A stretch of 60,797 bases of DNA, the filler included, from Sphacelaria rigidula (taxonomy: Eukaryota), in the NCBI GenBank assembly GCA_964200075.2. It is 5 parts of 5 records of this genome, joined end to end, with 100 filler letters (N's around TTAATTAATTAA, not from the genome) between each part and the next. Parts side by side here need not be neighbours in the genome. Positions count along the whole stretch, not along the records: positions 12,182 to 24,261 come from CAXNAA020004146.1; 4 more parts are not named here. The stretch is one strand, 5' to 3'. A program made the translations under genes and the position numbers. Below are positions 5,046-48,719 of the stretch, piece after piece (the stretch's first letter is position 1; each line of letters starts with the position of its first letter). The notes beneath the pieces were generated by a model. It saw only the letters and a program-made list of their open reading frames with translations. It had not been told where the DNA came from and did no database searches.

Positions 5046-7720
5046 ATGGAGGCAGACCCACGCAAGTTGCCAGTCTGGACGGGCGCTCGTGGGCACTCGC
5101 GAGAAGCATGGGACGCATGGAGACTTTCCATCGATGGATACGCAGGGGGGAAGGGACTATACCCCCTGCTGCGACCGGATTACATCACACCGGCCTTTCC
5201 GACAGCGACCATAACACTCGATCAGCGTAGGGCGTACGAAACGCACCAACGCAATACACAGTCACTATGGTTTCTCCTGGCACAGGCTACGAAAGGGTCA
5301 GCCGCAGTCATCGTCGCACGATGCGAGCACGACGGCAACCCTGACGGCAAGGAAGCCTGACTAGAGATGGAACGATATATGGAGGATATGCACACGACAA
5401 GCGGCCTGTGCAATTACTTGCATTTGAACGAAGACTGCGGGATCTCCGATGCAATTCTGCAGAAGAATTCGCAGATTTTATGGTGAAGCTGGACACCATC
5501 TGGGGGGAATTCGAAGCGTATGGAAACGCCAAAGCCGACGAGACCAAGAGGGCAGCCCTTTTACTCGGGATCAAGGAGGCGCTTCCACAAGAATTCATCC
5601 AGCTCACAACCCAGTCAGGTATGACGCACGATGAGTTAAAACGGGCAGTCGTAGCATCATCAGCATATCTAACGTCCGACATGGAATGCCGCGATGAGGC
5701 AGTAGCTTTCCAATCGAGAAACGACGGCAATAAAACCGATCCCGGGCTCGATAGAAATAAATGCGCCTCCTGTTTGAAGCGAAATCATAGGTGGCGGGAG
5801 TATCGTTCTTACCTTAACGGCAAACCTCCAGCTGAACGACCGCCGGGGATGAGCCCCGCACGAACGTTTCCACCCCCTCCACAAAACGGCAGAAGTAATG
5901 GGAGGAGGCACAGACCGCAGGCATTCATGACGATGAAGGTGGTAGTCGAAGATGAGCGAGTAGTATACATGTGCACGTCAACGAACAGTGACACAGAGGT
6001 GTCGATTCTCTGCGACTCAGGAGCGAATGACCACATGACTCCCTGGAAACAAGATCTCAGAAATACACGTACGGTTAATCGAAGCTGTACATTCGGGAAT
6101 AAGGGGCAACTGCAGGCACTGGCGATGGGAGAGATACCATTGCACGTGGGTGCTCGGGGAAAGGTGACTCGGGCAAAGGTCACACGGAAGGACGTACTTT
6201 GGGTACCTGGACTACTTTTCCGGGTGCTGAGTACCGGAACGATTCGGCGTGCCGGAGGATAATGCGTGGATTCCAGCAGGAAGGAGAGATACCTTTGGTT
6301 CAGAAAGCATGGACCGAAGATCCCCCTAGCCGAGAATAGGGGGTTCCTGACCCTGTCGGCATCGCTACAGGGGGATGGCAAACATGTGGCGTCGGCGCAC
6401 GCTTCGTTCGCAAACAAGAAGCAGCGCCTCACATTGAAGAAGTGACACGACACCTTAGGACACATCGATCCGGCTGTCATAAAACATCTCGAGAAGCGTG
6501 GGCTGATCGATGTCACTGATACCACGGTGGCGTCCGAGATGCGCTGCAGCATCTGCAAGGAATGCAAGTCCGAGGTGCTCAGCTACGGCCGCGGCGGCAG
6601 GAGTCCCAAAGCACCAGGTGAAGTTGTGCACACTGATCTTGAAGGCCCTTTTCCACGCCGATGTCACGGGCATGAAATCTTTTCAGGTTTTCGTGGACGA
6701 GGCCAGTCGAGACAAGCGCGTTGTTGGACTCAAGACACGAGATGCGGCCACTGACGCCACGGGAGCCTACATCGACGAAATGGCCCGTCAGGGAGTGGCC
6801 ATCAAATGCATCAGCGGAGACGACGCTGGGGAACTTGGACGGTCAGTCAAATTTCAACGCATGCTGAACAATCGCGGCATCAAATGGCGCACCTCACTGC
6901 CAAGGACACCTCAGAGTAATGAGATTGCTGAACGTGCAAATTCAACAACTGATGAGGATAGCACGCAGCCAACTGGTGAAAGCGGGACGCGGAGAGGACT
7001 ACTGGTTCTTCGCTGTGACGAACACGGCGTTCAAGACAGCAGGGATGTCCCACGAGTACCTCGGGGGCGAGACCCCATGTAAGAGGCTCATAGGAAAGCC
7101 TTTCAACTACGACCGGCTTCGTACTTGGGGATCGGAGTGTTTCTTGCATCAGCACAAGCAGCAACGCGGCGCCGCTGCAAAGTTCCACCCATATGCGAAG
7201 CGGGGCATCTTGGTGGGGCACGATCGGCACTCTCTCTGCTGGTACGTATGGCTAATACAGGAATTAAAGCTTGTCAAGTCTTCACACATCGCGTTTGAAT
7301 CAGAGGCCAAGATCCTAGACATCGTGCGGGAGCTGAAGGCAGTCGAACTCAGTGATGACGAGGCCGAAGCATCGGAAGAAGAGAAAGCAGCGCCAATCGA
7401 CGGCGATGATGGCCCGGGTGGACAGCCACTTTAGGACCCGCCATCATCGAAGCGCTCTTCTGCAGATAGTGGACTGCGTACGTCCAGTCGACTGGCGCAA
7501 CGGCATTGAGGGGACAACGCACAGCAACGCTTTAGAAGTTCTGGCGATAGCAGTCCTGGTGACGGAAATTTCCTCGCCACCCTTCTACAAGGACAAAGGC
7601 GCATTCTGCATGCTCGGGGGCGGAATCGTCACTGGACCACAGGAACCGTCGACAGCGAAAGAAGCTCCGGCAGAACCTGATGCTGACAGATGGACAGTGA
7701 TCATGGAAGAGGAGATCCAA
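5046..7720 (+). pseudogene. Disrupted copia gag-protease-integrase (pol without the RT core)
   Basis: Gag helices, protease ILCDSGANDHM, HDTLGH..CSIC zinc motif, integrase VHTDLEGP / FVDEASR / PQSNEIAER, SH3-like WGSECF..KRGILVGHD, and EPSTAKEA pre-RT linker. Stops at about 5358, 6260 and 6443, plus frameshifts. Confidence 0.9.
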
Positions 7721-9933: not shown

Positions 9934-11829
9934 GTGACAGCGGCGAGTCGACTCTACAATGCAACGTTGACGTCGCTGTATCCGGGGACGCGGTCGTGTT
10001 GGATGAGGCTCTGGTCGCCGACGACGGTTTCACGTGCTCCGCTGTCTACGTCGTCACAGCCGACGACGTCAACAACCTCGAGCGAGACAGCACTGTGACC
10101 GCTTCCGCCAAGGACGTGTACGGCTATGAGGTGTCGGACTCAGATGCGGAGGTGGTGGATTTGCACCAGGTGAAATACAAAGAAGCACGATCTGAACACA
10201 TTGTGCCCCTTGCGAAGGCCACCAGGCTGGGGGTTCGTGGTATATGGTTGATGGTGTGTAGAAAGGGTATCACCCAATCCCGATGGGCGTGTTTTGTGAC
10301 GGCCAGGAGTGTGCACACCCGAGGCAAAAAACGTACATGGGCGGAGACAAGGCGTGCATACTTCTGGTCCACACGCCTGTCATTGTCAAGTCCGTGATGG
10401 GTTGCAATCCCGCAAGACAATCGCATACCACGACAAGTTCTGTTTGTGTGGTAAAGTGTGCACGTATAAGCTGTACTGCAGTCGTGTGTGAGATAGCCGC
10501 TCCTTACACCCCAGGCGCTGCCGATGGCCATGCTCTCCCCGCCTCCGTATCGTGTTGATTTCAGGTCGGCAGCGTCCGGCTCTCGGTGACGCCGACCTAC
10601 TCCGGAGACACTGCGTCTACGACCGACGACGAGGTCGGCTACACTTATACTATTACCAACAACGGTCTGTTGAGCCTGTACGGTATCGAGATAGCGGTGG
10701 ACGGTCTGGCAGCGAACGGGGTATCCGTCACCTGTGGCGACGTCGGTGGCGGTTTTGTTGAAGGGGAGGCTCCTGGGAGTGTCACGGGGCTAGCCGCTTA
10801 CCCTGACAATGGTCTATCCCCTGCCGCATCTCTTACGTGCACGGCGACGGACAAAGTGTCTCAAGCAGAGGTGAGGTGTCGTTCGGCAGCGGACACCTGA
10901 AGCAATAGTAGGCACAGCTTTATATGAGCACAGTGGCCGTGTGGCACACAGTCGGGAAGTGTATCTCGACGTGCTTGTATTAGCTTACAGCGCGGACTTG
11001 TGGTGTTCGATGCAGATTCCATGATCACGCGTGCAAATGCATGGCGGCACGTAGGGGAAGCATATCAGGCGCTCCCCGTTTGTTCTCACCACCGTGCGGA
11101 TCGATGCTTGCGTTTGACTCAGATTAATGCTGGGATAAAGGCAGATTCAGCGGCAGTGAAAACATTTCACGAGAGCGATGCCGGCGAGTTGAGCAATGAG
11201 CCCGTTGTTGATGACGCAGGCTCTAGCGTTCTTCTGAATCAGGTGACAGTGCGTGTGTTGGGATTTGAGTGGAGGGCATCTCGACAGCCACAGGCAGACT
11301 GGGGCGATCTGCAGCGTGTGTGGTCGGAGATGGACACGGTGGCATGTTGCTTGCTGTCCGTGGGCTATGTAGTGCTGATGTAATATTTGTTTGTGGTGTC
11401 AAATATCGTGTGGCAGGCGAGGGAGCGACGTTCAACGGGGTCGAGTATATCGGGCAAGGTTTTGAGTGAAGGAGTGTGTTCGGTTGACAGCGTACCTCCA
11501 CCGATGGCATGTTCCTCACTGCAGCGATAGGAACACATATCGGTTGCCTTACGAACAACGAGACCGTAGGCACTTTCCCGGCGGTCCAGTGACAAGCCGG
11601 TCACATGGGTTGATTTTGTAGCGTGGAGTTTGATTCGCGTGCCCGCCGCTGCGCCTGCAGGAACCTGGGGTCGAGGTGACGCAAAGCTCGAGTCACCACC
11701 CGGTCGACGATGTGAACGGTTCGGCCGCAGTGGATGAGACGATCGGGTTCAATGTGACTTCGACAAACACTGGGAATGTGGAGATCACGGGCGGTGGCAT
11801 CTCCAACGCACTGTTCAGGCATGATGACG
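9934..11829 (+). CDS. Partial gene for a repeat-containing Ig-like protein (DUF7507/DUF11-type); exons 9934-10169, 10565-10870, 11123-11242, 11661-11829
   Basis: AG/GT-bounded, phase-compatible exons. Peptides FTCSAVYVVTADDVNNLERDSTVTASAKD, VGYTYTITNNGLLSL, LTCTATDKVSQAE|INAG and DETIGFNVTSTNTGNVEI match the YTFTVTNTGNV / TYTVTQAD repeat pattern. Both ends are missing. Confidence 0.8.
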
Positions 11830-12081: not shown

Positions 12082-12181
12082 NNNNNNNNNNNNNNNNNNN
12101 NNNNNNNNNNNNNNNNNNNNNNNNNTTAATTAATTAANNNNNNNNNNNNNNNNNNNNNNNNNNNNNNNNNNNNNNNNNNNN
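12082..12181. other. Artificial 100-nt spacer (N-TTAATTAATTAA-N)
   Basis: N run with an all-frame stop linker. Confidence 0.99.
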
Positions 12182-12259
12182 ATGGCATGCATGATCATGA
12201 GTACACCCCCCCCCAGTGCCCTAGTTAGTGTTAGTCTATGTTATCGGGCGATATATAAG

Positions 12260-12570
12260 TAGATACCCCGTTTATCAGCAGAGTGTTATTGACCGTAAAA
12301 CACAGTCATTGGGCTCTAGTGCAATAAGTATGTACGAGTCGAAAAAAAACAAGTATTTTCACTTTTTCACACATACGATCGGGACAGGCTCGATCGACCG
12401 AAAATACCGAAGAGTCAGAATCTGGGCTGAAAAATGGTAAGACCCCCGATGACCGATCACCCCGTAAGTCACTCAATACCGAGTACAGACGATTTTTTCT
12501 TGAAATGTGCAGCGGATACTACTATCTTCTGGTCCCCAATGTGATGAGCGGCGGCAAGCGAAAGAACCAA
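12260..12570 (+). repeat. Dispersed repeat (related copies at about 17975-18310 and 24400-24740)
   Basis: Shared blocks ACCCCGTTTATCAG, ACCGAAAATACCGAA and GATGAGCGG(C/T)GGCA. Confidence 0.65.
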
Positions 12571-12669
12571 AAAAATCAGCAATCAGAAAGAAATCACCAT
12601 ATTTTTCACACCGAACGTTGAGTACTGTAGACATGCAAACGCGAGGAAGGACATAGAAGATAACATACG

Positions 12670-13200
12670 TAGACTTATTCATCTTCATGTTGACGCCCGG
12701 CGTTTGGATAGCACATCAGCCACAACAAACAACAGCGAACGTACCCTCGAAACACGATTCAGTGTACTGCCAAACGAACAACACATGGAAGCAAATTAAA
12801 CAAAGCACATCGAGCCGACAAACAAGAAACAAAACACAAGAGGCTGAAAAAAGGCACACAGCACAAACAGTACGAGCCGCAGCGCACCTTCGCCTTCTCT
12901 GCATCGCTCTACACCCAAGGCAGCCAAAACCGACTTTTGGTACAGGGCGGTGAGCACCTGTGAAAACAACAGAAGACAAAACAAAAAATGCGAGCAACAA
13001 ATAAAGGCGCCAGACGAAGGGAAAGAGGAAAAACATCAAACGGAAAAGAAGTCAAATTTGAGGAAAGCAAAAAAAAAACTCAAGGGGAAAAAAAAAATGA
13101 AATGGGAGGTTGAAAAAAAGGGAGACGGCGACAACGACGACCATGATGAATACTCTTGTCGCGAGGGGAAAAAAAAAGCAAGACTGACTGACGACAAATA
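12670..13200 (+). repeat. About 530-bp purine-rich direct repeat, copy 1
   Basis: Aligns by eye with 16810-17340 (AACAACAGCGAACGTACCCTC, GGTACAGGGCGGTGAGCACCTGTGAAAACAAC). Confidence 0.85.
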
Positions 13201-13986
13201 AAACAATAATCTACCAAGATATATATGATGTCACCGAGCCCTGCTGGTCCGACCGTCACGACAACACGGCAACACGGCAACACAACAACAGCCAGTGGGG
13301 AAGGGCGAGATGAAGATCACGGTACACGTTCGGATCCAGACCCAAAAGTGTTTCTCCTTACTTCAGCCCGAATAAATGCCGCCGTGACTTGTAGCAGGTT
13401 TCACTTTCTCACGTCGGGCCCCAAGGCTTTGATTTTCTGCGCCACACACCGGGCGGCCGAAGATGTCGCGTGTATGGCTGGCACTCACCATTTTTCTTCG
13501 CTACACTAGATCATTCCTTCAGATCCGATCGAAACACACAACAGTCTTGCGTATTGTTGCACTGCGATGCAACACCACTCGTCGTGTGGTACACGCACCT
13601 GAATTACAGGACGATCAACACGGCTTGATCAAGCTGCATCCTGGGTCCCACTTGCGGTCGCACAGTCCCGTCACATATACGGCGACCAGCATCACGTCGG
13701 CGATACGAGTTCCCGCCAGCGAAGACGACGTGGTCTCGTCTCACACCGGACCACAACCGCCTGCGGACACACGTGCCCCAGAGGTTGACTCCGACTCCGA
13801 CCCGTCCCCCGTGTCCGTCGTTCCTTCCGAGGAAGATGGGAACGTGTCGCCCCTGGGCGAGGTCGAGTCGGAAATCGACTCGGGCGATGAGCCTTCCCTC
13901 GCCCCCGCGGAAGGCTCTTCCACCCCCGGCACGTTGCCGGATACGTCGCCCCGCACCGACAGCAAGATCGACACCCACGGCCACAT

Positions 13987-14282
13987 ATACAGTAGGAAGG
14001 TGCCCGAGTTTGGTGCTACCGTGCCCCCGGGGAAACTCAAGTCAGAGAGTCGGTGGGCCAGGGTCAGTCAGGCTGCACGCTGACCTAGGCCCCGCGGAAC
14101 ACTGTTTAACTATAACATGGACGTTAACCACTCGGAAATTGTTGACGTCCATCGTATCGTTAAAAAGTGTGCCGCGGGGCCTAGCTTGGCGTCCAGCCTG
14201 GCTGGCCTCGGCCCACTGGCTATCCGACTTGAGCTTGCCCGAGGGTACGGTAGCACCAAACTCGGGAACCTTCCTGCTGTAT
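13987..14282. repeat. Long inverted repeat, hairpin 1 (arms about 142 bp, 12-nt loop)
   Basis: 13987-14128 is the imperfect reverse complement of 14141-14282. Confidence 0.92.
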
Positions 14283-14283
14283 T

Positions 14284-14653
14284 TGTCAGTCTCGAGAATG
14301 CTCACGACCTCTACCCTGATGTCGCTCTTCCCGAGCTCGCTGGCCAACTCCGTCGCGATACTCGTGCCCCCGACATCCAGATCCCAAGTGCATCCGGGGC
14401 AGTACTGCTGGATGACTGCCTCCTTCATGCCGACGTTGGTGGCGTAGTCGTCAGCTTCTGGCCTCTTGTAGATGACCTGAAGTTGACGACTACATCACCA
14501 ACGTCGGCATCAAGGAGGCAGTCATCCTTCAGCACTGCCTCGGATGCACATGGGACCTGGACGTCGGGGGCTCGAGTATGGCGGCAGACTTGGCCAGCGA
14601 ACTGGGCAAGATTGATATCGGCGTGCCGGTCGTGAGCATTCTCGAGACTGACA
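14284..14653. repeat. Long inverted repeat, hairpin 2 (arms about 175 bp, about 21-nt loop)
   Basis: TGTCAGTCTCGAGAATGCTCACGACC (14284) pairs with GGTCGTGAGCATTCTCGAGACTGACA (to 14653). The inner ends are GTAGTCGTCAGCTTC / GAAGTTGACGACTAC. Confidence 0.92.
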
Positions 14654-15379
14654 CGGAAATGGACTTTTGAAAAAATATGAAGCCTAAAAATAAAATACCT
14701 TTTTGGAGCTGCCAAATAGAACGATGGGCTTTTGGGGCTGAAGCCTACGACGCAAAGGCCCATTCGCGTGGCCTCAGGACTGTTGTACGTATGGAGTCGG
14801 AAACATGAGAAGGAGGGAGGAGTATCATTGAGCAATTGGTCGATTGCTTGTTCCTCACTACCATAGCTAATCTGTCACGGATCCAATCGCGGTCAATCTG
14901 AAGGGCGATGACACGGAAGCACTCGCCAAGGAAAACTCGAGATAAAGGAAAAAGGCAGCGAAAAAAGCGAAAAAGCAGATGCTTCCCCTGTCCTATGAGT
15001 AAAGTTGAGTATGGGGTGCATCTCATGTCTCCTCGAAGTTAAGACCTCTGCTTCTCACGTCGCCGGGCATGGCAAGCGCGTGTTGATGTTGGCCGAGAAC
15101 GTCAATAGCTGAGTCGTGATCTTCCCCGGTTTACCCAGCTCTTGGTTCACGAATCGCTGGATCACAGTTCCTCCGATTTCTTCGTGGATCTGACGAAAGG
15201 GGCACAACGAGTGGACAAAAGAAGAAGGAACGCTGCTCATACTTTTTGGAACTACCATTGTGTCTCATGAGATGTATACCTCACGAAATTGAAGAACGAG
15301 GCGTAGAAAAAACAGCAAATGAAAACACGCGTTGCTCTCGTTGCAAACGAAAACCAAACAAACAAAAACAAAAACAAAA

Positions 15380-15636
15380 GAGTCATCCTACGATAGGGGG
15401 GGAGGGGGGGGGTATTTTGGGCCACTTCTTGCACGAAATTCCAAGTCAAATCGTCGTTGAAAGCAGCAAGGGTTGCTCAAACGAGCTTGCTATGGATAAA
15501 TAACGCTCATTCATACCGACCGACGCCATTTTGAACCAAAGACAAGCGCACCGCGAGTGTGGCAGGTCGCCTGACACACCTATGAGCCTCTTCTTCCGTG
15601 CAACCAAAACATCCCCACCCTATCGTAGGATGACTC
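15380..15636. mobile_element. Complete MITE family B copy
   Basis: TIR GAGTCATCCTACGATAGGG ... CCCTATCGTAGGATGACTC, in A-rich flanks. Confidence 0.85.
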
Positions 15637-16046
15637 AAAAAAAAATATTTTTTCATACGCGATACCTTGCGAAGAACACCTCTTCTTTGATTGAAGGACA
15701 TTGATTGTCTATTATCCAGGGTGTGATATTTTCAACTACAAACGCCGACGTCAGGGAAAAAAAAAACGGCGAACAGAACAATTTGGCACGACAGTCATAA
15801 TCACAAGCGCCCCCGTATTGTCCAACTTGTCTAACCGATAGCCGACAAGGAAGGACGGAAAGCTGCGGGTTCCTATACCTCCAGGTGCGAATTTTTGTAC
15901 ACAATAAACATATTATTTGAGGTTTTCAACAATAACACAGTACTGTTACATGATTTTCGTCGTGATCAACGTGAGGACGTCGGTAGCAAAATACTCTAGA
16001 CATCTACACTAAAACACAAATATATACCATACCCTATATAGCCTGT

Positions 16047-16440
16047 CGCCCCGGTGGCTCAGTTGGTAAGCTTGACGCCTTCGAAACCTTCGGACGGTTG
16101 GGTCGTGGGTTCCAATCTTGGTAAAGTCACACGATCTAGGATCTTCCCTCACACCATGCCCAACAGAGGAGAGCGACCATGTCGTGAGTATACCCAAAAT
16201 TCGACTCCAGAGTTGACGAGGAAAGGGGATGGCCGAACCCCTCTCGCGATAAAAAAAAAGAAGAAGAAGGCAACAACCGCAGAAGGAAGGTGGAGTACTT
16301 CTACAACAAAAGCAAAAACGAAAAAACTTCCTGTGTTGACCTTCCTCCTGTGAGGCCCCGACTGATGCGCCTACATGTACCGAGAGGTGTAGACCGGCGT
16401 CCAGAATGACCGGGACGACCACACATATTTACATACATGA
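16047..16440 (+). mobile_element. tRNA-derived SINE family 1
   Basis: Head GCCCCGGTGGCTCAGTTGG (Pol III A box) and GGTTCCAATC (B box). The body is shared with 20543-20915 and has a simple-repeat tail. Confidence 0.7.
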
Positions 16441-16809
16441 CACCTTGGACAATGGATTACGATGTCTAAAGGTGTACCACGTACAGTGTGTCATCTATTC
16501 TCTAACGCAATAGACGCAATAGTCGATACTGTGCGCAGTACACTTTTCACAATACAATAGTTTGTCCAAGGTATGATGTACATTCGACGAGCGTTCATGC
16601 GGTGCGGGAGTGTTAAGTCATGATCCAAACCGCGATACCAAGACGCTACGGGGGCGACACAAAATATGCGTGTATATATATATATATATATAGTGTAGCC
16701 ACCGACTTCAACCAAACATTCAAACAGAAAAAAAAACGAGGAAAAAAGCCTTGTAGTGTGCAGCAGCATCAGACATAAAAACACGAGGAAGAAGAAAATA
16801 GTGTACATA

Positions 16810-17340
16810 GACTTGTCCATCTCCATGTTGACGTCCGGCGTCTAGATAGTCAGCCACGAAAAACAACAGCGAACGTACCCTCAAAATACGATTCTGTGTA
16901 CCGCCAAACTAACAACATATGGAAGCAAAAAAATAAAAGCACATGGAGCTCACAAACAAAAAACAGAACACAGTAGGCTAAAAAAAGGGCACACGGCACA
17001 AACAGTACAAGCCGTCGCTCACCGTCGCCTTCCCTACATCGCTCTACACCCAAGGCAGCCACCACCAAGTTCTGGTACAGGGCGGTGAGCACCTGTGAAA
17101 ACAACGAAGAACAACAAAGGGATACAAGCAAAATAAAGGGCACCAGACGAAGGGAAAGAAAAACAAAGCGAAAAAGGAAAAAAAGTATGGGAGGAAAGAG
17201 AACCACATGGATGGGGAAAAAAATGAAGGGGAAAGAGGGAATAAAAAGGGGGCGGCGGAGGGGATAAAAAGGGAAACCATGATGATTTTCTTGTGGCATG
17301 AAGAACCAAAAAAGACTGGCTGACGACAGAGAAAGCAACG
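16810..17340 (+). repeat. About 530-bp direct repeat, copy 2
   Basis: Diverged copy of 12670-13200. Confidence 0.85.
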
Positions 17341-18568
17341 TCCTGCAAGGGAAATAATATTAAAAAAACAGCGTTGAACTGAGAGTGCAATGCATGTATG
17401 CTTTTGTAAATTTTTCGCAGTCGACGATTTTCAAGATTATTTTTCGCGTGCCACCGCTCATCCCAGTCAGCAGTTTATCCTAGCGTTTGGAATCGGGATA
17501 TACTAGGCATCAGCTCCACATTCGGGAACAAAAATAGTCTCTACGCCCAATATATTGTCTTTCCCTTATCCAAAAATAAAATACAACCATCCATCCTCAG
17601 ACGATCTTTAATTCATTTATTCATTTACTAAATTTATTATTTGAAGGACTTCCGAGCTGAATTGACAGGGGGTGTCGTTGACCCTTTTGGTCCGAAACAT
17701 GTTTATTTTCGGCTCTAGCTCAATGAATAGGTTGACACAAAAAATGAGGGCCCGTCAAATCATTCATGATAGTGATCCGAACTGGTTCACCCCCACCTGT
17801 ACTATGCAGAGCTCGGTTGGGCAATTTTCGTTTTCGGGTACTTTTCTGAATTTTCTCGTGTCGTATCCGTCCTTGCCGCTTCAAAGTCCTATCGTCCATA
17901 GATATTGGGAAGATAAACAGGTCGCGCTCACAACACAATTCTCCATTGGTGCTGTCGGGGTGATGCGGAGTGAGTACCTTGTTCACCAGGGGGTGTTGTC
18001 GACCGTCACTGGTTCACAAAACACAGTTTTCCGGCTCCAACGCAATTGATAGGTAGAAATTGACAAACATCGTTCGTCATTTGTTCACGGAAACGATGCA
18101 GATTGCTTCAATCAAGCAAAAATACTCGAGGGCCAGAACCTAGGGCTGGGTAGCTCAGGACCCCTGAAAACCGGTCAGCCCGTACGTTGTTCAATAATGA
18201 GCGCAGATGTGATCGTATTTCGAAATGTGGAACGGGTGCTACTTCCTCCCGATCCCCAAACTTTGGAATCAAGCATTCACTGAGATGAGCGGTGGCACTC
18301 GAAAACACTTTCGAATATCCTCATATACAAAAACACAACAACGACCCCTACCCCTTATTTTAGATGAAAACTACTGTACTGTATTTCTCCTTCTGTATAT
18401 ATATATAACAATGAACTCATTTATCTTTTTCGCCGTTGAAGAGCATTGGACGCAGGTGCACTTTTTGTCATTTTTTTCACTTGATTTTAGAGTACATTTT
18501 TTCGCGCCCATTTCATTCTCCCTGAACTGAAGCTCTGAGAAGCCAGTATTGGCTCTTACTTGATTTTA

Positions 18569-18620
18569 GAGTACAGCGGAGTACAGCGGAGTACAGCGGA
18601 GTACAGCGAAGTACAGCGAA
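18569..18620. repeat. Minisatellite (GAGTACAGCG) x about 5
   Basis: Directly visible tandem decamer. Confidence 0.9.
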
Positions 18621-18801
18621 ACGGGGCCGTCGTTCTGTCAACCTCTGACACGTTTTCCGTATATATATATATATACATTCTATCACGGCTGGGGGAATTA
18701 ATGCCGTGAGTCAGCGCACGTGGACGAGCCCCGATTCCCTACCCCTCCCCCCCGGCAAGGGCATCGTGTTTTTTTTGGGAGGGGGGGGGAGGGGATGTTA
18801 A

Positions 18802-19846
18802 CCCCTTTTGCCCCTTCGGGCCTTCGGGACCGGGCCTCCAAAACTACCAATGAGGCTGGTCAGGGATGACGTGTCTGGCGTCTGCACGAAACAGTGGCTT
18901 CATGTTACTGAAAATCCGCACATGTAACCGCAGGGTTATGAGGAAGACCGAAAGTTTCATCCGATCTATTTTCAGGTGCAGGGTGAGCATTAGGTAATGT
19001 ACATCTGATGTCGTACGCAGTATGGGTCGCCGTAGAGAGCTTTCAACAAGATGCCGGGACCGGCAAGCCGCCCGCCACTTGCGACTTTGGATGATATTAC
19101 TGTCCCCATCACCTTGCCACACAGCCCTTTTGTGGTTGGGGTGGGCCGCGATTTCCCGCATTGTTGCAAGCGGCAAATTCTCTTCGAAGGGTATGGGCGT
19201 TGCGGCGCATATACATACAGTACAGTAGTACAGTAGTGCAGTACGCCTCTCCAACTGCAGCAGCAGCTGCCGCTGCATACTCCCTTGCACGTTCTGAGCA
19301 CTTCTAAGCTACCGAGGTCAATTGCCTATATACCGCTTCTTCATCCCCGCCCACTGCTTACATGTTCACGGTGTTCTGCAAGGCATCGGCAGAATTCATG
19401 ACGATAGCTCCTTCTGTCCCTCCACGGCTCAGTTGGGTTTAGTGCCTCGTGAAAAATTACCACATTGTGACGTGTACACTATTTCCCGATTTTACCCCCT
19501 CCACTCTGTGTTATTGTAATAACTACATTTTAGGATAGGCTGGCGAACAAAAAAAAAGATTCGGGAAATCGTAGGAGCGCTACACTGAATGCAAATAATA
19601 CGAGTAACCGTTCCCCGAGCATCCGCGATTTGCATACCTGGGAAGGCTTGTCTGGGCCACGGATCGGGCCTCCACACGATCTTGGCCGTGACATCAAACT
19701 CGGTAACAATCCCCCCGCTGGTCGTTGGGGTCTGGTCGATAAATTTTGCCCCGCCGTGATTGAGCAGGTTGCTCCCTGACTTTTTTTTTTATATTTCATC
19801 AACACATGGGCAACCCCGTGGTGGTGAGGGGTCGGCCCCAAAAGGG
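18802..19846. mobile_element. piggyBac-like non-autonomous element
   Basis: TTAA|CCCCTTTTG ... CAAAAGGG|TTAA termini, with TTAA at 18798-18801 and 19847-19850. The TIR is short and no transposase is recognisable. Confidence 0.5.
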
Positions 19847-20542
19847 TTAAGCGCCCGCTGGCCTACTGCGCTACTGCAATCGTAGCGGTCGATAAAGAAA
19901 ATACGAGAAATCATTTCAGCACCCCGACCATCCTGCTGGGGTCTCCCTCGTCTACACTATCGCCATCATCTACGGGAGCGTCAGATCGACGAGGTTTTAC
20001 CAGAAGTGGGCTAAATTTTTCCATGGGTGACACATGTGGCAACTATCGCTGATCTCAACCCCAATGCAAGGCATGACGAGAAACCTCGGGGCAAGGTGGG
20101 TGCACAGGGTTCCCTAGGCAATCTGTGGCGTTGGTAGACCTCAAATCGGCGCCTTTAGCTAATCCTAATCCTAACCCTAACCCGGTTTGAATGAAAACGC
20201 GTTCTGCGCACGCTAGGAGCACATGGGACTGCCAAGCCCCACTGAAGATCCGATCCTCGTTGTTCACACTCAGATCAAGTAATACAACTTTGTAGCCCAA
20301 CCCCACTTAACTGAACTGGTCAGATCTCATTGCCGGCCGCGGGCGCCAGGACGGTTAATAGATATGTCCAAAACGTGTGCTTTCGGAACAGCGCTACACA
20401 AGTCTGGTGATCCAGTCAGGACCGCCGCGCTTCCTTTTCAAGACATTCAAGACACAGGAGCAATATATTCAAAATTCGATGCCGGGCAAGTACATACACT
20501 ACAGTAGTGGTTGATTCAGCCTCCCAATGGGAGTACAGCCGA

Positions 20543-20915
20543 TCGCCCCGGTGGCTCAGTTGATATTTCCAACGGGTGAGACGTTGGTTCGAATCTCGGT
20601 GAAGTCACGCGATCTGAGATGTTTCTTGCATCCTGTCCGACAGTGAAGAGCGAGGACTCTCATGTGTCGTGGGTACACAAAAAAACGATTTCATCGTCGA
20701 CGAGGAAACAGGGATCCCTGAACCGTTCTCGGGATAGAGAAGCAAGGCAAGCACCGCAAAAAAAAGGTGCGGCACCAGAAACAAAATGATCAATCAAACA
20801 AAAACCCTGCATTGACCTTCCTCCTTTGTCACCCCGGCTGACACGCTCACACATATTCACAGGTGTAGACTGGTGTCCCGAATAGATGGAACGACAACAC
20901 ACACAAACTACACAG
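20543..20915 (+). mobile_element. tRNA-derived SINE family 1, second copy
   Basis: TCGCCCCGGTGGCTCAGTTG..GGTTCGAATCTCGGTGAAGTCAC; the body matches 16047-16440. Confidence 0.7.
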
Positions 20916-20952
20916 ACGCCGATACAAGACACACGAACAGCTATCTCCTCAC

Positions 20953-21422
20953 CGAGCGGCTGTCGGCGTAGGCACGGTCGTCATCGGCGCAATCGTGAGC
21001 ATCTCCTCTTTCTTCCCCTCACACCTGCCCCGCCCACCCGCCTTCTCCGCTGCCGCCGCCGCTGCCGCTGCCGCCGCGGCATGCGCCGCGGCATGCTGCG
21101 CCACATCCCCCCCCTCAATTGCCGCTACAATCTGAACGGTGCCACCCCCACCCCCTCCGCCGCCCGCATGACTGCCCCCGCCGCCACCACCCTCAGCGGC
21201 CATGGTGCTAATTCCACCGCCTCCCCCAATTCCGCCGCCGCCTCCGCCGCCACTACCGCCGTCGCCGCTCGCGAGTTCTTCGGCAATCTTTTCGGTGCGC
21301 GAAGACTGCGGGCCACCCGGCATCATGGGCTGATCGTCGCTTTCGCGGGAAAACAAGCTGCTGCTAGCGATGAAGCTTGGATCGCCGCGGCTCGTCATTG
21401 TGCGCTGCGATTGCGGCGTGGC
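20953..21422 (-). CDS. Probable exon of an unknown Gly/Ala low-complexity protein
   Basis: GC-rich open frame (MMPGGPQSSRTEKIAEELASGDGG..HAAAAAAAEK) bounded by a pyrimidine-rich CAG acceptor and a GTGAG donor. Confidence 0.55.
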
Positions 21423-22539
21423 CTGGCAAATGAGGAAGGGAAAACCGCCCGCGCGCATGTGTGTGGAGGACGGGGAGGCGGGACGTCTGTGTTGTGGCGG
21501 AGTGGCAGTAATACTGGTGGTGGTTGTGTGTACAAGTAGCAGTCTTCATGTTCTTTGTTTTTCGATGTGTTATGTTCCTGTGTGTGAGTTGAAATGGATA
21601 GATGGCAGGTGCCTTCGTGGATGACTGACTTGATCGACGTATTAATCGTCGCATATCTTCACCTCTCTCCGAGGTATGATGCAGTCGAGTTCACGATGAA
21701 GACGATGTGTAACCAAGTTAAACATTTTACGAGACACAGTACAACATGTATTATATATAAACGAGTCATCATCGATTGTAAACGATAGACGCACTATTCG
21801 ATACTGTACCCAGTGCACTTTGTCCAACGTAATTATTTTGTTGCCCACAGACAACAGTGTTATCATCATACGTTTTCATTTACACACGGTACAAGTAGGA
21901 CAAGAGAAAATGTCAGAGAAAAACAATACGAATTTTGTCTGCTCATCATTATTCTCAAAAACCCGTCGACAAATCAGCCCACTGCCATTGGACAACGACA
22001 TTATCACAATATCAAGACATGAGAACGATGCCACTACTCACCACTGGCTATTATTATAGCGACATCCACTTATTATCTGTTCTTGTTCAGCCGCTTGGGT
22101 ATACACTGTTTATAGAAATTATGGGACTTGAGTGAGTGATACACATTTGCCGTATGAAGGGTGCTTTTGTCTTTTCTTTTCAAGATATGGAACAAAAAAG
22201 GTACACACACACACACACACACACACGTCTCTCATTCTTGGCGACCATCATTGTACGGTTGCGATTGTATACAGTTTCGCTTAGACTGCGACGCATCGAA
22301 AATCTCGAGGAGGGTATTTTCATAACATTTTTTGATGCCTTCGACCATGACATACACTTCGGAAATCTCGAGCAGCATCACTTTACAACAGCTTTTGAAT
22401 CCTTCCAGCTACCGCAGTCTTTTCCCGGCGAGTCCGTGTATAGTATGCAGAGCGCAAGGGTCTGTTGTTGCGATTTGATTTCAACCCTCTCCCTCACCAG
22501 GGTCACGATCTTTTGCACCAACATCACTTCAACCCTTGG

Positions 22540-23170
22540 ACCGCGGTGCGGGTAGTCCATTTGGATCATACATACTTCTTTCAAGTGAATATCGATGCCG
22601 ATTCGACAGGTGACCTGCCCTCGCAACCTATGGGTTAACCCTTAGACGGCGATGCGGGTAGTCCATCTGGATTACACATATTTTTTTCAAGTGAAATTAA
22701 TGCGGATTCAGCAGGTGACCTATACCCTCGCGGTGAAAGGGTCAACCCTTTTGGACCAGTATAATGCGTGAGAGGACCGCGTGTTTGGGGGACCGCATCG
22801 TAGTTCAAAACACCTCAGGATCGACGTTTTTCGAAACCAATCGGGCTAGTCCCCTAGCCCCCACCCTACCCACGGCGAGGTTCACATTCTGATGCGGTCC
22901 TCCAAGCACGCGGTCCTCTTAAGCATTACACCGGACTCCAGGACATATGTGGTTTGCACGCAGGGGCGTTTCCGGTGGCATCATTTTTACTTGGAAATAA
23001 TTGAAAATGATGCCGATTCACGGAAACACCCCTGGGTCCAAACCACATCTTTCTAGGAGTCCGGTCCAAAAGAGTTCACCAGTTAACCCCGAGGGTGTTT
23101 GTTCAACCGCTGAATCGGCATCAATTTCACTTTTTGAAAGTATGATCTAGATGGACTACCCGCATCGCGG
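22540..23170. repeat. Nest of inverted and tandem repeats (MITE-like)
   Basis: GCGGGTAGTCCAT block twice in tandem (about 22548, 22654) and inverted at about 23151. Internal hairpins at 22762-22928 and 22930-23065; AACCCTT/AGGG motifs. Confidence 0.7.
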
Positions 23171-23992
23171 ACGAAGGCTCATTCTGAAAAATGGGGATGA
23201 AACCTAGATGGCCCACCCTGACGGCCAAAGGTTGGGCGAGCACTTTCACCGCCAGGGCGGCCCATCCGGCTCTTCAACCATTCTCCAGTAAATCGGTGGG
23301 TGGACAACCCACCATATGCAAAAAGTCTATCTCCCGATATGATGGGGGGAATAGTGATCCGCCCAAACTTTTTTTCTTAGCGCGATGGTCGAAGGGTGGA
23401 TGTAAGGAACGATTGTTACCGCAAAAAAGACCGCTTCACAAGCGAGAGTACAACATGACGTTTTTGTACTACTGTACTGTCGTTAGAGTTCAACACTTGG
23501 CAGGAGGGAGATGGTCCGCCTTTGTTTTAGTGTGGACACCGAAATCCGGATCTTTAATAGGAGTGGTGCTCCCAGCGTGCAAAACTCATGAGGGGGTCAA
23601 CCAGCGATATTTTGAATGTTCCAAAGGAGGCGACCTTGCCCCCTGAGAAAAAATTGAACCCTTCGACTCCGATGTAGTTCAAGTAGATACAAGTCATTAT
23701 CCATTGAGTTCATTGTTTGGCAGTGCGAATGTTTCGTGACTCGATTTCAATATACGATTCTTATTGCAGTAAAGATTCCAATTTTTCGTGGTGAACAAAA
23801 GAGTCACGCTATGGTAGGGGTGCACTTCTTCGGCGAAAATGTTTCTCGGGGTGTTTGTTGGACGGGTCATTTTGAGATTCGGCATGATTTTTACTTGATC
23901 AAGACTGAAAATGATGCCGATTCACGAAAAGGCCCTTGCGTACGTCTCCACGTCCGGTCCCCGAATATTTCGATTGCACAATAAGAGCCGCC

Positions 23993-24261
23993 GCGCCCCG
24001 GTGGTGTGATGGTCCGACTGTCGCCATTTGGGTGGAGAGAACGGGGGTTCGATTTTCGATGCGTTGGGTTTTTTCTTCGTCATAAATGATTTCCACCGTG
24101 GAAGCGTGAGAACGTGAGTAAACAAAGTCGTCGACTGGGTTTGTGTGACATGATTTGACGCGGTGTGGGAGTGCTGACCCAATCCGAGAAACCAAAATGA
24201 AAGGCACGTACCGGGGGAGAGATGGGTTGATCCCCTGAGCCCACGGACTCATCCCGAGGAA
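23993..24261 (+). mobile_element. tRNA-derived SINE family 2 (truncated by contig end)
   Basis: GCGCCCCGGTGGTGTGATGG (A-box-like) and GGTTCGATT (B-box-like). Homologous copies at 49060, 54635, 58291 and 58608. Confidence 0.75.
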
Positions 24262-24361
24262 NNNNNNNNNNNNNNNNNNNNNNNNNNNNNNNNNNNNNNN
24301 NNNNNTTAATTAATTAANNNNNNNNNNNNNNNNNNNNNNNNNNNNNNNNNNNNNNNNNNNN
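24262..24361. other. Artificial 100-nt spacer
   Basis: N-TTAATTAATTAA-N. Confidence 0.99.
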
Positions 24362-35543: not shown

Positions 35544-36366
35544 GAGTCATCCTACAATAGGGGTGGGAACACATTCTGGGCCATTTCTTGAACGAAAATG
35601 CCGCTTTGAATCGTCGTTGAAAGCAGCATCTTTGTTCGAGCACGGCTGTCCCATCAGTAAAGATACCTGAGTTTGTACGGGCCCTTAACGATGTCCGTTT
35701 TTTTTTTTAAATGAACTCTACGGTGTTTTTGGGTTCAAGAAAATGTGTTTAAAATTTGCAGCTCGTGCTTGTACCATGCCGCCGAACGGCTGCAAAAAAA
35801 GTAGTCGGCCAAAAAATGGCTGTTTTTTGCCCCTTTCCGAGGGGAAAAAAATTGTCAATTTTTTTTTGGGAACTTTTTTTTAAGTGCGTGGGACTTCCTG
35901 GCAGCAAGCCCCAGTGAAGGCGGGGGCGATTAAAAAACAAAAAAACGACACATTTTTTCCCGTCGGAAACGGCAAAAAACGGCAGTTTTTGGGCCGACTA
36001 CTTTTTTTGCAGCCGTTCGGCGGCATGGTTCAAGCATGAGCTGCAAATGTTGAACACATTTTCTTGAGCCCAAAAAACACCGTAGAGTTTATTAAAAGGA
36101 AAAAAACGATCGGGCATCGTTAAGGGCCCGTACAAATTCATGTGCCTTTACTTATGGGACAGAGGAAGTACTCATTCATACTGATTGACACCATTTACAC
36201 ACAAATATAAGCGCACCGGGAGCATGCTAGGTGGTGTGACACGCCTACGCATTAACACTGCTTGACACCCTTCACACCTAAATATAATCGCACCGCGAGT
36301 ATGATGGGTCGTCTGACACACCTACAAGTCCCTGTTTTTCGTAAAATCAAATCCCCCCCCCCCCCC
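35544..36366. mobile_element. MITE family B copy carrying a nested foldback element
   Basis: Starts GAGTCATCCTACAATAGGGG. 35544-35640 and 36170-36330 match the two halves of 15380-15636. Confidence 0.7.
35646..36162. mobile_element. Foldback element with about 200-bp inverted arms
   Basis: CTGTCCCATCAGTAAAG..GTACGGGCCCTTAACGATG..GCCGCCGAACGGCTGCAAAAAAAGTAGTCGGCC is mirrored at 35950-36162. Confidence 0.9.
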
Positions 36367-36440: not shown

Positions 36441-36540
36441 NNNNNNNNNNNNNNNNNNNNNNNNNNNNNNNNNNNNNNNNNNNNTTAATTAATTAANNNN
36501 NNNNNNNNNNNNNNNNNNNNNNNNNNNNNNNNNNNNNNNN
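36441..36540. other. Artificial 100-nt spacer
   Basis: N-TTAATTAATTAA-N. Confidence 0.99.
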
Positions 36541-38617: not shown

Positions 38618-41600
38618 AAAAACCCGCCTTCCGACCCCCCCCCCCCCCCCAACCGGTTTCAAACCACAAAAAAAAAAAACAAAAANNNNNNNNNNCATGT
38701 GAAGACCGCATGTTTTCGTTTTCCGGGCCCCCGTACCGCCCCCAGAACCAAACCCCCCCCTCCCCCCCCCCCCCCCCCCCGCCCGCCCCGTTCCCCATGA
38801 TCCACAACAAAATACCGTTCTCGGAACCGTCAGCCTACGCCGATGGCTGTTCAAACGACGATCACAGATACAAGGAATCAAGCCGATCTACACATGGTAC
38901 AGACAAGAGTGTCTATGGCACAAATAACAGCGCGCACGGCCAAGGTGGTGGAAGACATGACTACTTCCGACCAGCGTTTGGTGGCGAATCACACCCCCCC
39001 CACCATCACGTGACACCTTCCATACCATTGATGGGTCGTCCACCCGAACCCCATCAGAATCAAAGAAGGTCGTCGAGGGGGGGTGGTCAAATCCACGGTC
39101 ACCAGTCAGAAGAGCACTATCATCACCGCTCAAACTATGAAGAAGGCCATCTGACACAGTCCGCTCCATACAGCAGCACAGCCGCGTCTGCCGTGTACTC
39201 GAAACGTGCCCAGAATGGTGGAGAAGCGATGGCACCCCCGCCGTGGGCCGTCACCTCAGAAGCGCAAGCAGGTCTGAATGGGACCTCTGCCGCAGAAATG
39301 GAACGACGAATAACGGAGGAGGATCGGCAATGGATGGCGGTAATATACGGTGGTAACTGCGGTTTTTGCAATGTGTTTACAGTCAGCACCAAACTTTCTC
39401 TCTATAAAGACACGTTGCGGGGCGTCTCTTCTCAAACGAAACCCCCCTGGTGTTTTGTCATGGTCTCCTCGTATTCGCAGCCTATTCATTGCCGCTGTAC
39501 TGCTAAAGCGTTCACTTGTCAGGAAGCAGTCGTGTTCTCACCTTGCTTGTCTGCACCTTCCAGGGAGTGGAACTATCTGTGGGTGATTTTGTTAACGGCG
39601 TCCGCCAGTCTACGGCAAACGTCAGAGCTCGACTCTAGGAGCACCCTCTCTCGGTTGCCCCTCACATTTGGGTTCATTTTTTCTCATCTGTTGTTGATCT
39701 TTTTGTGCTTGCCAACACCTCCGTCCGGCCATGCCCGTTGACATGGCAATGTTTAACCCGATTGTGCATCGTTCAGGATCTAGCGTCTGCGACAGAGAGA
39801 CGAACACGGCGCGACAATGAAGTCTTACTACGCGAGATACAGTCCTTGGGAGACAGGATCGATAACATGGTGAGCAACATCGTGCGAAACGATCAAAACG
39901 TCACCCTTCAGACGAGATTGCTGTGCTGTGCTGCCCTGTGCTGTGCTGTGCTCCAGTTTACGCGAGCGCTGTTTAATCTGCATCCTTTCATGCGTTGACC
40001 TTGACGAACATAATCGCAATGCTTGCTCTGAGGCTGTCCCGATTCTTGACTACATTTTCCCTATCTCTTGCTAAGGACAGCAGGCTTGCCCTGCCCATGA
40101 TCCAGAGTTGCTCTGAATTTCTATGTCTAGAGCAATATATTAAATGAAAGCTAAACTGCTGGAAACGTTGTGAAGCACGGCTTACCCGCGCTTGGTATGA
40201 AGGAGCTGACGTTTTGGCAATGGATCAGAAGATGAACACCCCAGGGACAAGTGGCATAGAGCTGTCGCCATTAATTTGTTCAAGTACACGTTTCTGCTTT
40301 GGCCGCTGCTTCGTACCTGTCCGTGGACAGTCGTTGAACGAGCAATACAGCAAGGTGACGCAGGCCGTGAAGTTCGTGCTACTCTACCAACAGTCCGTCA
40401 AACACGGTGACTTCAGCCCGGTCAATATGCTCGAGGAGGCATACAAAAAGGCGATGGACGCGTACACACACCCGAAGGTGATGAGTGATACCTCCTTCGT
40501 CCAGTAAGCGAAGTGCTTCGGCTTTGCTGGGTTGTACCTCGAGCTCTTGAACCAGTGACTGGGTAGCTCACGCTATCGATCGGAACGAACTTTTGAGTCA
40601 AGTAGAGTCGAACGTGTAAAATGACCTGATACTTTTTCGTAGGGATGTCTGGGCCTCAAATTGGACCCCTTTCGGCTCCTTTTCGTCTAGTTCCTGACAA
40701 AAACACTTGAGACAGCCGACAATGAGACAGTTATTTGTCCCTGCTGGTGTGACACGTCAGAATCATCCCCACGATGCTTCACGTGAACGCCAAAATCCTC
40801 GGCGTTTGATGGCTTCCGTTAGGGAAATGTAGAACGCAATAGGAGAGTCGCGTGGTCTGTTGCCACTTTTTGGTGGCAATTCACGCCGTATTCCCAGATT
40901 CACGAGAAGCCGTGCGATCCGACTCACTATCGCGCAAGATTCACTGAGATACGTTGCCTGTAGATGTCATTCATCGATAGCTGAGCATTGAATGTTGGTG
41001 TAAGCTGTCGTGGCCTCAGTGTCGGCGTGTAGTTCGCAAGGACTGACTACATAATGTGGACCCTTTCTGAATCTCCCCGCCCCCCCTCCCTCCATTTCCA
41101 CACGAGGTTTGTTTGGCCGAAGAGATTTTTCGCCACCTGCTTTCTCTGCACCACGCGTGCGCCGGTCAGATTGGCAGGATTTCCGTGAAACTGTCAAGAT
41201 TGATAAAATAAACATTGAAGATGAAAACAAATAGCAGAAGGAAAACAGAGTGTCGTGACGTGATTGATCTGATTGATTCGATTGATTGTCGCGCTTTATC
41301 TGATCGATCCCCCAGGAATCATGATCCAGCCTTACCGTGGTTATTATCCACAGGATGTACGTACCCGACACAAGAAAAATACTGAAGCACTCGCTGAAGA
41401 AAATAAGGAGCAGAAAGGGCAGAAGAGAACAACAGAGTAGGCTAAGACAGGAAAGCAAAACAAATAGATAGAAGAGAAGAAGATGAATGGCCGGCTCTGC
41501 TACATGGCTTCGCCGGACACGGTCTTGAACAGACGCACACTCATGCCCAGTCGTAAAAAACAAAAGGCCGTGGGGAAAGAAATGACAGCGGCTCATCTTC

Positions 41601-48619: not shown

Positions 48620-48719
48620 NNNNNNNNNNNNNNNNNNNNNNNNNNNNNNNNNNNNNNNNNNNNTTAATTAATTAANNNNNNNNNNNNNNNNNNNNNNNNN
48701 NNNNNNNNNNNNNNNNNNN
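48620..48719. other. Artificial 100-nt spacer
   Basis: N-TTAATTAATTAA-N. Confidence 0.99.

Follow-up and report, generated by a model that had tools for sequence, protein, structure and literature searches.

Two abutting hairpins in the genome of Sphacelaria rigidula: an apparent fold-back scar in a copy of a multi-copy terminal exon

We describe a double hairpin at positions 13983-14653 of a 60,797-nucleotide (nt) stretch of DNA from the brown alga Sphacelaria rigidula (GenBank assembly GCA_964200075.2). This whole stretch, hereafter the window, joins five pieces of about 12,080 nt each, and the double hairpin lies in the piece at 12182-24261 (CAXNAA020004146.1). On balance, we think it likely that the locus is the scar of a rearranged copy of the terminal exon of a multi-copy gene, shaped by its paralogues, and that any small RNAs it might give rise to are a by-product. 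The rearranged exon copy is probably non-coding, and the double hairpin looks like the microhomology-mediated fold-back or template-switch product of a repair or replication accident within a segment of that exon, here termed M. The coincident ends of the arms, the short spacers, a 3-nt microhomology and the equal divergence of the two arm pairs argue for one accident inside M rather than for independent insertions.

A repeat search places hairpin 1 at 13983-14128 / 14141-14286, with arms of 146 nt that are 83% complementary across a 12-nt spacer, and hairpin 2 at 14284-14461 / 14476-14653, with arms of 178 nt that are 84% complementary across a 14-nt spacer. A blastn comparison of the 671 nt of 13983-14653 with the window recovered only the self match and two inverted matches (E = 5.6e-107 and 7.9e-80). 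Both strands of 13960-14680, whose folding had been proposed as a check in an original prediction made from the sequence by eye, lie far below their shuffles: the plus strand folds at -534.7 kcal/mol (shuffle mean -258.9, z = -34.7; none of 20 shuffles equals it) and the minus strand at -524.3 kcal/mol (z = -41.0; none of 20 comes near it). Repeat search, blastn and folding on both strands thus bear out the two adjoining long hairpins of that prediction; they do abut, but instead of meeting within 1 nt (14282/14284) they overlap by the three nucleotides 14284-14286, which are common to both. The stem of hairpin 1 comprises 121 Watson-Crick pairs, to which 10 G:U pairs are added in plus-strand RNA or 4 in minus-strand RNA, and that of hairpin 2 comprises 150 Watson-Crick pairs with 8 or 6 G:U pairs, respectively; uninterrupted pairing extends over 20 and 26 bp at most. 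The many G:U-compatible transitions that had been claimed for the plus strand do go in that direction (18 of 28 in plus-strand RNA, 10 in minus-strand RNA), but the bias is not significant (binomial p = 0.18). The two arm pairs are equally diverged, with 25 of 146 positions differing in hairpin 1 (0.171 +/- 0.031) and 28 of 178 in hairpin 2 (0.157 +/- 0.027), corresponding to Kimura two-parameter distances of 0.196 and 0.177.

The earlier proposal of a gene-derived structure with intact paralogues and a coding signature in its arms is upheld by phmmer and tblastn searches and by the synonymous excess described below. A HMMER pass over 1.84 billion representative proteins returned four matches, and word-index searches added P0005 and P0006. 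P0001 (195 residues, phmmer E = 1.9e-19) and P0004 (374 residues, E = 3.3e-05) are colinear proteins in which segments A, M, B and C follow one another, while P0002 (172 residues, E = 6.2e-10) is an antisense-frame model; P0003, a 2279-residue repeat protein with 24% identity, was taken as spurious. P0005, which is 68% identical to P0001, and P0006, which is 90% identical to the plus frame of the window, both add an N region, and an alignment of the family (A1) together with tblastn gives the order N-A-M-B-C. In this alignment, N carries the motifs ..HGLIKxHPG..ITSAxRVP.. followed by an acidic Ser/Pro-rich stretch; A has the consensus ..SRWARxSQAxRQxxP..DAN; M, of about 55 residues (about 165 nt), reads ..HPWF..KVGxELVSPAxLRG..VxxK; B reads RPxxxD..KEAVxQxxCPxCxWD..GKSDIxVxVVSxLxTD; and C is the tail KKFxKV.... 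A kinship between segment A and the tail after B was only suggestive in protein (DNA about 11 of 27 nt by hand) and was not used. By tblastn, P0001 matches both copies of B in the locus (57% and 54%) and both copies of A (43% and 39%), with its residues 114-173 falling on 14476-14658 of the plus strand; residues 8-168 of P0005 correspond to 13568-14152, and residues 85-171 of the partial P0006 to 13610-13870 (89.7%). We read N-A-M-B-C as the terminal exon of a larger gene because P0006 has 84 further upstream residues outside the window and its match begins exactly at 13610, behind a ttacag site.

The only names attached to the family are those of P0002 and P0006, 'unnamed protein product [Sphacelaria rigidula]', and the named relatives, at 80-90% identity, are thus proteins of this species only and not of Ectocarpus, and the Ectocarpus premise of the original prediction is not supported. 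No Pfam domain scored above threshold on three local frames, on the 106 frames of at least 110 residues in the window or on P0001-P0006, the best scores below the cut-off being CbiJ (E = 0.19) and PelD_GGDEF (E = 0.083). Phage records gave no tblastn match, and viral contigs searched with P0001 gave 14 pattern matches with none confirmed; a metagenome locus was dropped as a chance match, with 15 residues aligned and the family proteins at E >= 0.077. The ESM Atlas yielded no usable match to P0004, and an AlphaFold2 model of P0001 from a six-row alignment was unusable (mean predicted local distance difference test score 37.4). We take the family to be lineage-specific, multi-copy and brown-algal, without a known domain. 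Its copy number can be gauged from contigs of several sequencing runs, among which comparisons here and below concern the best-supported rows (45 difference rows and 109 contig pieces lie beyond these). In the DNA-like run X1, depths summed across contigs reach 1065-1450 at 13666-13848 and about 450 at 14520-14641, with 56 in the hairpin core and 61-62.5 in the flanks. These depths imply roughly 7-24 family copies of at least 90% identity, a rough estimate in which the depths of all matching contigs are summed. Over 13483-13909 the summed depth climbs to about 24 times that of the flanks in X1, with an elevation in X3, X5 and X6 as well; the family's N region is more repeated than B (about 7 times the flanks).

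The locus consists of the following elements, in which residue numbers refer to P0001:

13610-13982, plus strand: N region of the terminal exon, in sense and continuous with A of the left arm, directly behind the acceptor-like ttacag at 13604-13609
13983-14128, plus strand: left arm, segment A in sense, reading IYSRKVPEFGATVPPGKLKSESRWARVSQAAR and PRPRGTLFNYNMDVN on either side of one in-frame stop; residues 13-56 at 13997-14128
14129-14140, plus strand: loop 1, reading N-HSEI-V with its neighbouring codons, like N-PTEF-S of the family at the start of M, a weak assignment made by eye
14141-14286, minus strand: central A, pairing with the left arm (25 of 146 differ); residues 13-56 at 14272-14141
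14284-14286, no strand assigned: hairpin junction, TGT on the plus strand and ACA in sense, a microhomology at the B-A join
14284-14461, minus strand: central B, reading PEADDYATNVGMKEAVIQQYCPGCTWDLDVGGTSIATELASELGKSDIRVEVVSILETD; residues 110-171 at 14473-14285 (57%)
14462-14475, minus strand: loop 2, reading (V)IYKR, the codons with which segment M of the family ends; the loop continues into central B, not into the right arm
14476-14653, plus strand: right arm, segment B in sense, reading PEVDDYITNVGIKEAVILQHCLGCTWDLDVGGSSMAADLASELGKIDIGVPVVSILETD; family homology runs to 14655 and then ends
14042-14494, minus strand: stop-to-stop frame of 150 residues, spanning both loops and both central copies, plus an antisense portion of the left arm

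The order on the plus strand is hence N, A, a 12-nt loop, reversed A, reversed B, a 14-nt loop and B. Tested as an intact family member, which would have A, M and B colinear on one strand, the locus lacks M save for 12-15 nt in each loop, carries a stop in the A of its left arm and loses family homology at 14655, 2 nt beyond B, after which paralogues read KKFAKV... and the window does not. We read the plus strand as the sense of the locus, because family proteins run N-A-M-B-C and it is this strand that carries N-A followed by B, and the central piece as a non-canonical fusion of B to A. Loop 2 is what remains of the last codons of M and runs on into the inner arm, because it agrees at 13 of 15 nt with the canonical paralogue codons ...ALDGSVIFKR (from the loose end of a contig before 14476); in A1, VIYKR is aligned to AVHKR/VMHKT. 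The ends of the arms of each pair coincide in family coordinates within 12-15 nt, and the sense triplet ACA is equally compatible with how A begins and with how B finishes in both the center and the right arm. Paralogue contigs match 14476-14655 with 16 differences and then diverge from the window on both sides.

The divergence between the arms is of the coding type and is not neutral decay. In the sense frame, 12 of the 25 arm differences in A and 12 of the 28 in B are synonymous, a total of 24 of 53, against an expected fraction of 0.22-0.27, and the estimate of about half for hairpin 1 in the original prediction agrees with the count for A and extends to B in hairpin 2. Read in the five other frames, the same changes give 4-10 'synonymous' ones of 25-28. 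We permuted the changes 20,000 times, each keeping its base and type and being moved to a random site of the same base; the permutations averaged 13.4 synonymous changes, and none reached the 25 observed on the permutation background. The differences fall on codon positions 1, 2 and 3 in the numbers 11, 13 and 29 (chi-square p = 0.004), the 29 of 53 at third positions comparing with 17.9 expected (permutation P = 0.0003). As six of the third-position changes in B are exchanges between C and G, a bias of decay from GC to AT offers no explanation. The Nei-Gojobori dN/dS of B, for which a value near 1 had been named as speaking against the original prediction, is 0.33.

Comparison with the paralogues points to their influence on the arms. 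A high-depth contig of canonical type, 585 nt long in X1 and 673 nt in X6, differs from the right arm at 16 of 180 positions, while the right arm differs from its partner at 28 of 178. At ten listed paralogue differences, the central copy agrees with the right arm in five cases, with the paralogue in three and with neither in two, and this split implies that 17-23 of the 28 arm differences show the paralogue in agreement with the right arm. Contigs with a canonical M also match central B in minus orientation, with a loose end at 14473 (X3, X5). Each arm is thus nearer to canonical relatives than to its own partner, as seen from the closer right-arm contig and the canonical-M contigs on central B. 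Further, a variant contig of X5 covering 14082-14445 shows 21 differences from the window, of which seven listed ones lie within 14309-14333; six of these seven are synonymous third-position changes, and four restore pairing with the right arm of the window. This patch would look like a gene-conversion tract from a coding paralogue. Hence, we infer that the arms were either copied from different paralogous templates or, more likely, converted in patches by expressed paralogues after the event.

We posit the following course for that event. The nascent plus strand would have copied N-A and a few codons of M, whereupon its broken or stalled 3' end may have folded back and copied A in reverse. 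A jump at the 3-nt ACA microhomology to the end of B would then have allowed B to be copied backwards, along with the last 15 nt of M, and a second turn would have copied B forwards, the product finally being joined to an unrelated right flank. In agreement with a fold-back, the inverted duplications adjoin their templates across spacers of 12 and 14 nt, and the junction that is not a fold-back has a 3-nt microhomology, although 3 nt is also possible by chance. As to precedents, fold-back priming at breaks, capture by 0-5 bp of microhomology and inverted insertions of 2 to about 150 bp, resembling microhomology-mediated break-induced replication (MMBIR), are described for yeast in the consulted portion of PMC11724301, and related precedents are provided by large human inverted duplications and duplication-triplication/inversion-duplication (DUP-TRP/INV-DUP) events, as far as the excerpts of PMC3907307 and PMC4352052 go. 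Like the insertions attributed to fold-back, MMBIR or fork stalling and template switching (FoSTeS), the locus has an inverted copy beside its template with a short unique spacer continuous with one arm, a microhomology at the other junction within the 0-5 bp range (here 3 nt) and a copy length in the reported range (about 150 bp in yeast), going by the same portion of PMC11724301. Unlike them, it has two back-to-back fold-backs replacing about 165 nt, with at least three switches, and the polarity of its hairpin-2 loop misfits simple self-priming of an outer end; moreover, the event is old (16-17% divergence), has since been duplicated, and left arms whose divergence is of the coding type.

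Several points weigh against this reconstruction. The middle switch lands at the end of B, which is also where family homology ends on the right flank, a coincidence that purely local template switching does not predict. Local fold-back yields identical arms, so that a second process, conversion or paralogous templates as proposed above, is needed to account for the synonymous bias; in a hand calculation bearing on a common local template, the right arm is 91% identical to the canonical paralogue contig against 84% to its partner (z of about 2). The polarity of loop 1 depends on one identical and two similar residues of four with respect to the start of M. The loop of hairpin 2 joins the inner arm, so a simple model in which both ends fold back fails. 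Central B retains six consensus residues against three in the right arm (A1), which a live central exon would fit too. In addition, the comparisons cover ten listed differences of the variant contig and ten of the 16 of the paralogue contig, and no listed contig spans loop 2 (14462-14475), where hairpin 2 rests on the assembly alone; as the arms of hairpin 2 are 16% diverged, it is unlikely to be a technical palindrome.

Other routes to such an arrangement were tried and set aside. The folding back of both ends of one break followed by their ligation is ruled out by the continuity of loop 2 with the inner and not the outer arm. A staggered-break inversion and the DUP-TRP/INV-DUP layouts predict reversed B followed at a distance by reversed A, or full alternating copies, which are not observed. 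For an internal complementary region of the DIRS type, or a circular-RNA retrocopy, as the source of the B-A join, the GT/AG required was not seen by eye at the necessary sites. Against a foldback transposon or miniature inverted-repeat transposable element (MITE) stand the lack of a second copy in the window, the X1 depth of the core, which equals that of the flanks, and the derivation of the arms from an exon; direct repeats flanking 13983 and 14653 were not seen by eye.

The arrangement is kept in a second copy or strongly diverged haplotype, which retains hairpin 1 and the junction at about 94% identity: the start of P0002 carries the center of hairpin 1, and contigs of that identity cover loop 1 and the junction. 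P0002 aligns with 14152-13637 of the minus strand (79.7%) in an antisense-derived frame and starts with MDVSDFRVVDVH, the palindromic center of hairpin 1. Contigs of about 94% identity cover 13945-14111 (X1, X3, X5) and 14082-14369 or 14082-14445 (X3, X5), the latter running across loop 1 and the A-B junction, and an X1 contig at 14082-14308 spans loop 1 and the hairpin junction with three differences in 227 nt. The hairpin core varies more among samples than its flanks: core contigs have 3 differences in 227 nt (X1) or 15-21 over 288-364 nt (X3, X5), compared with flanking contigs that have none in X1 and X3 (317-468 nt) and 2-4 in X5.

On the left, a transcript of the opposite strand comes close to the locus. 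In run X6, which is RNA by guess only and of which contigs and not reads were compared, a contig at 13595-13705 runs on with 30 letters equal to window 12924-12953. Among the eight possible cuts for the 641-nt skip, only 12958-13598 is canonical, and only on the minus strand (CT..AC on the plus strand). The corresponding features are:

12958-13598, minus strand: intron of 641 nt, with donor CAG,GTGCGT and acceptor TTTTTGTTTTGTCTTCTGTTGTTTTCACAG,G, from the X6 contig
13599-13973, minus strand: exon portion antisense to N, X6 contigs tiling 13595-13973 (contig records 25, 26, 28 and 30 without differences, 29 with two)

We infer a spliced minus-strand RNA over at least 13599-13973, X6 being RNA by guess; a contig break cuts it off 10 nt short of the base of hairpin 1. 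The downstream exon at 12455-12957 is of low complexity and strongly T-rich on the minus strand, and the transcript is similar to P0002, the gene model on the minus strand of the sister locus. An exact X6 contig resumes at 14604 and extends beyond 15100, and none of those listed lies within 13974-14603; this gap is not informative, because the DNA-like runs break at nearly the same places (13974 and 14633), and the breaks are probably branch points of the assembly graph.

Such a transcript has a bearing on whether the locus could be a functional hairpin-RNA gene, an endogenous small interfering RNA (siRNA) or proto-microRNA locus, as the original prediction offered. A non-coding minus-strand transcript would pass through both stems, be diced and silence the parental family in trans. 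We regard this as possible and yet doubtful. In its favor, the exon to which the arms are homologous belongs to a family whose depth is about 7-24 times that of the flanks, a GT-AG spliced minus-strand contig lies directly beside them, the minus-strand model P0002 of the sister locus begins within hairpin 1, the structure persists in the copy of about 94% identity, and pairing in the stems is perfect over stretches of 20 and 26 bp. This would be consistent with Drosophila hairpin RNAs (hpRNAs), which 'typically derive from their targets' and can arise in non-coding transcription units, according to the part of PMC10317233 consulted. However, 16-17% of the arm positions are mismatched, the G:U pairs show no significant strand bias (18 vs 10, p = 0.18), and Rfam gave no matches across the whole window. 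Moreover, the extracts of Tarver et al. (PMC4513859) report no sign of an origin from genes or transposons for the precursor microRNAs (miRNAs) of Ectocarpus, and the brown-algal miRNA criteria, in the excerpted text of PMC5381526, exclude extended hairpins with other, more abundant small RNAs. The stronger version, in which siRNAs from a double hairpin-RNA locus police the amplifying family while conversion from their targets keeps the arms matched, would be less probable still. At the same time, any transcript across the structure would carry imperfect duplexes of 146 bp and 178 bp as Dicer substrates against about 7-24 paralogues, which is a possible by-product of the fold-back scar.

It is improbable, in our view, that two or more independent events brought paralogue fragments to nest or recombine beside their counterparts by chance. 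Such a history would accommodate a canonical paralogue of at least 90% identity for each arm, nearer than the partner at 84%, and the coding type of the divergence. Against it, both limits of the two arms in a pair coincide in family coordinates to within 12-15 nt, the hairpins abut and share 3 nt, and both pairs are equally diverged; independent insertions are disfavored because they predict neither the coincident ends, nor the abutting hairpins, nor the equal divergence.

The central frame was described in the original prediction as an exon flanked by inverted copies of its halves, and the frame and the peptides are indeed as described there, with the stop of the left copy following ...SQAAR. 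It is very improbable, nevertheless, that this is a live coding exon of a minus-strand gene, with B fused to A and the flanking copies being relics or double-stranded RNA masks on splicing or translation. The synonymous excess and the dN/dS of 0.33 would suit a live exon, as would the consensus residues, CPGC and GKSD among them, that central B has retained and the right arm has not (the six vs three of A1), the six of seven listed differences between window and sister copy in B that are synonymous, and transcription of the minus strand nearby. Yet the center is not a normal family exon, the order B-then-A without M departing from N-A-M-B-C and matching no family protein. In the 1.84 billion representatives and a set of 5.8 billion proteins, the sole overlapping protein is P0002, whose overlap covers query residues 115-150 and consists of the antisense-derived tail. 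The frame is bounded by stops and continues as the antisense of the left arm, and the right-arm codons CCT-GAA-G (P-E-V), read in reverse complement, account for the TTCAG 'acceptor' at 14477. All three listed sister-copy differences in central A are non-synonymous. Finally, an artefact of assembly or library, such as a chimeric palindromic read, is hardly credible: loop 2 is unspanned among the listed contigs and the source assembly appears fragmented, but technical palindromes are near-identical where these arms are 16-17% diverged, contigs from runs of other studies (X1, X3, X5) span loop 1 and the junction, P0002 carries the center of hairpin 1, and the core depth in X1 equals that of the flanks.

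Elsewhere in the window, Pfam matches are restricted to Copia-type fragments at 5345-7431 (plus strand; Pol_BBD E = 3.8e-10, SH3_retrovirus E = 2.1e-13) and an open frame at 10559-10897 (plus strand) with DUF7507 (E = 1.1e-07). A second long foldback in another piece, at 35646-36162, has arms about 81% complementary over about 517 nt (blastn) and folds at -343 kcal/mol; it is rich in A/T runs, single-copy in the window and not obviously coding, and may be MITE-like or a non-coding hairpin. A short dispersed repeat with GAGTCATCCTACGATAGGGG occurs at 1-80, 15380-15464, 15614-15636 and 35544-35597, in both orientations and in several pieces. The blocks of filler between pieces (12082-12181, 24262-24361, 36441-36540 and 48620-48719) have the form N44-TTAATTAATTAA-N44 with a period of 12,179 nt, and the ten N's at 38686-38695 are the sole N run in the window resembling an ordinary gap.

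In maize, Mu killer, which carries part of MuDR duplicated in inverted orientation, silences that element. The present locus resembles it in being an accidental inverted partial duplication of a multi-copy sequence, a hairpin transcript of which could act on all copies; unlike Mu killer, its parent looks like a host gene family (the multi-exon models P0006/P0001) and not a transposon, and any silencing by the locus is hypothetical. With Drosophila hpRNAs and plant MIRNA genes born by inverted duplication, as presented in the portions of PMC10317233 and PMC3237417 consulted, it shares long inverted-repeat arms with homology to an exon from a recently amplified protein-coding family and a position beside or in a non-coding-looking transcription unit. 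It departs from them in having two abutting and different hairpins, in the continuity of its arms with the remains of the parental exon and in that small RNAs, Dicer dependence and an effect on targets are hypothetical here. The inverted-duplication model of young plant MIRNA genes is that of Allen et al. 2004, as cited in the excerpt of PMC5381526. Brown-algal miRNA foldbacks are unusually long, averaging 170-183 nt, with 75% in transcribed genes, and no sign of an origin from protein-coding genes is reported for the precursors, as far as the consulted passages of PMC4513859 and PMC5381526 go. In contrast, the present foldbacks measure about 300-370 nt with stems of 146-178 bp and belong to the 'extended hairpin' class, so that by the brown-algal criteria in the excerpt of PMC5381526 the locus would be an extended hairpin and not a miRNA.

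Events of this kind are known, as are loci of this kind, while the double abutting form and the coding-type divergence of the arms are unusual. If the locus is a scar only, it offers a clean natural case of a multi-step fold-back, in which an exon segment was replaced by its inverted neighbors and the product was later duplicated and reshaped by paralogues, and it informs how long hairpins arise in brown-algal genomes. If it were instead transcribed and diced, the route from gene to hairpin by which small-RNA genes are born in plants and flies would extend to an independent multicellular lineage, and this would be, judging from the portions of PMC4513859 and PMC5381526 consulted, the first small-RNA gene of the inverted-duplication type reported in brown algae.

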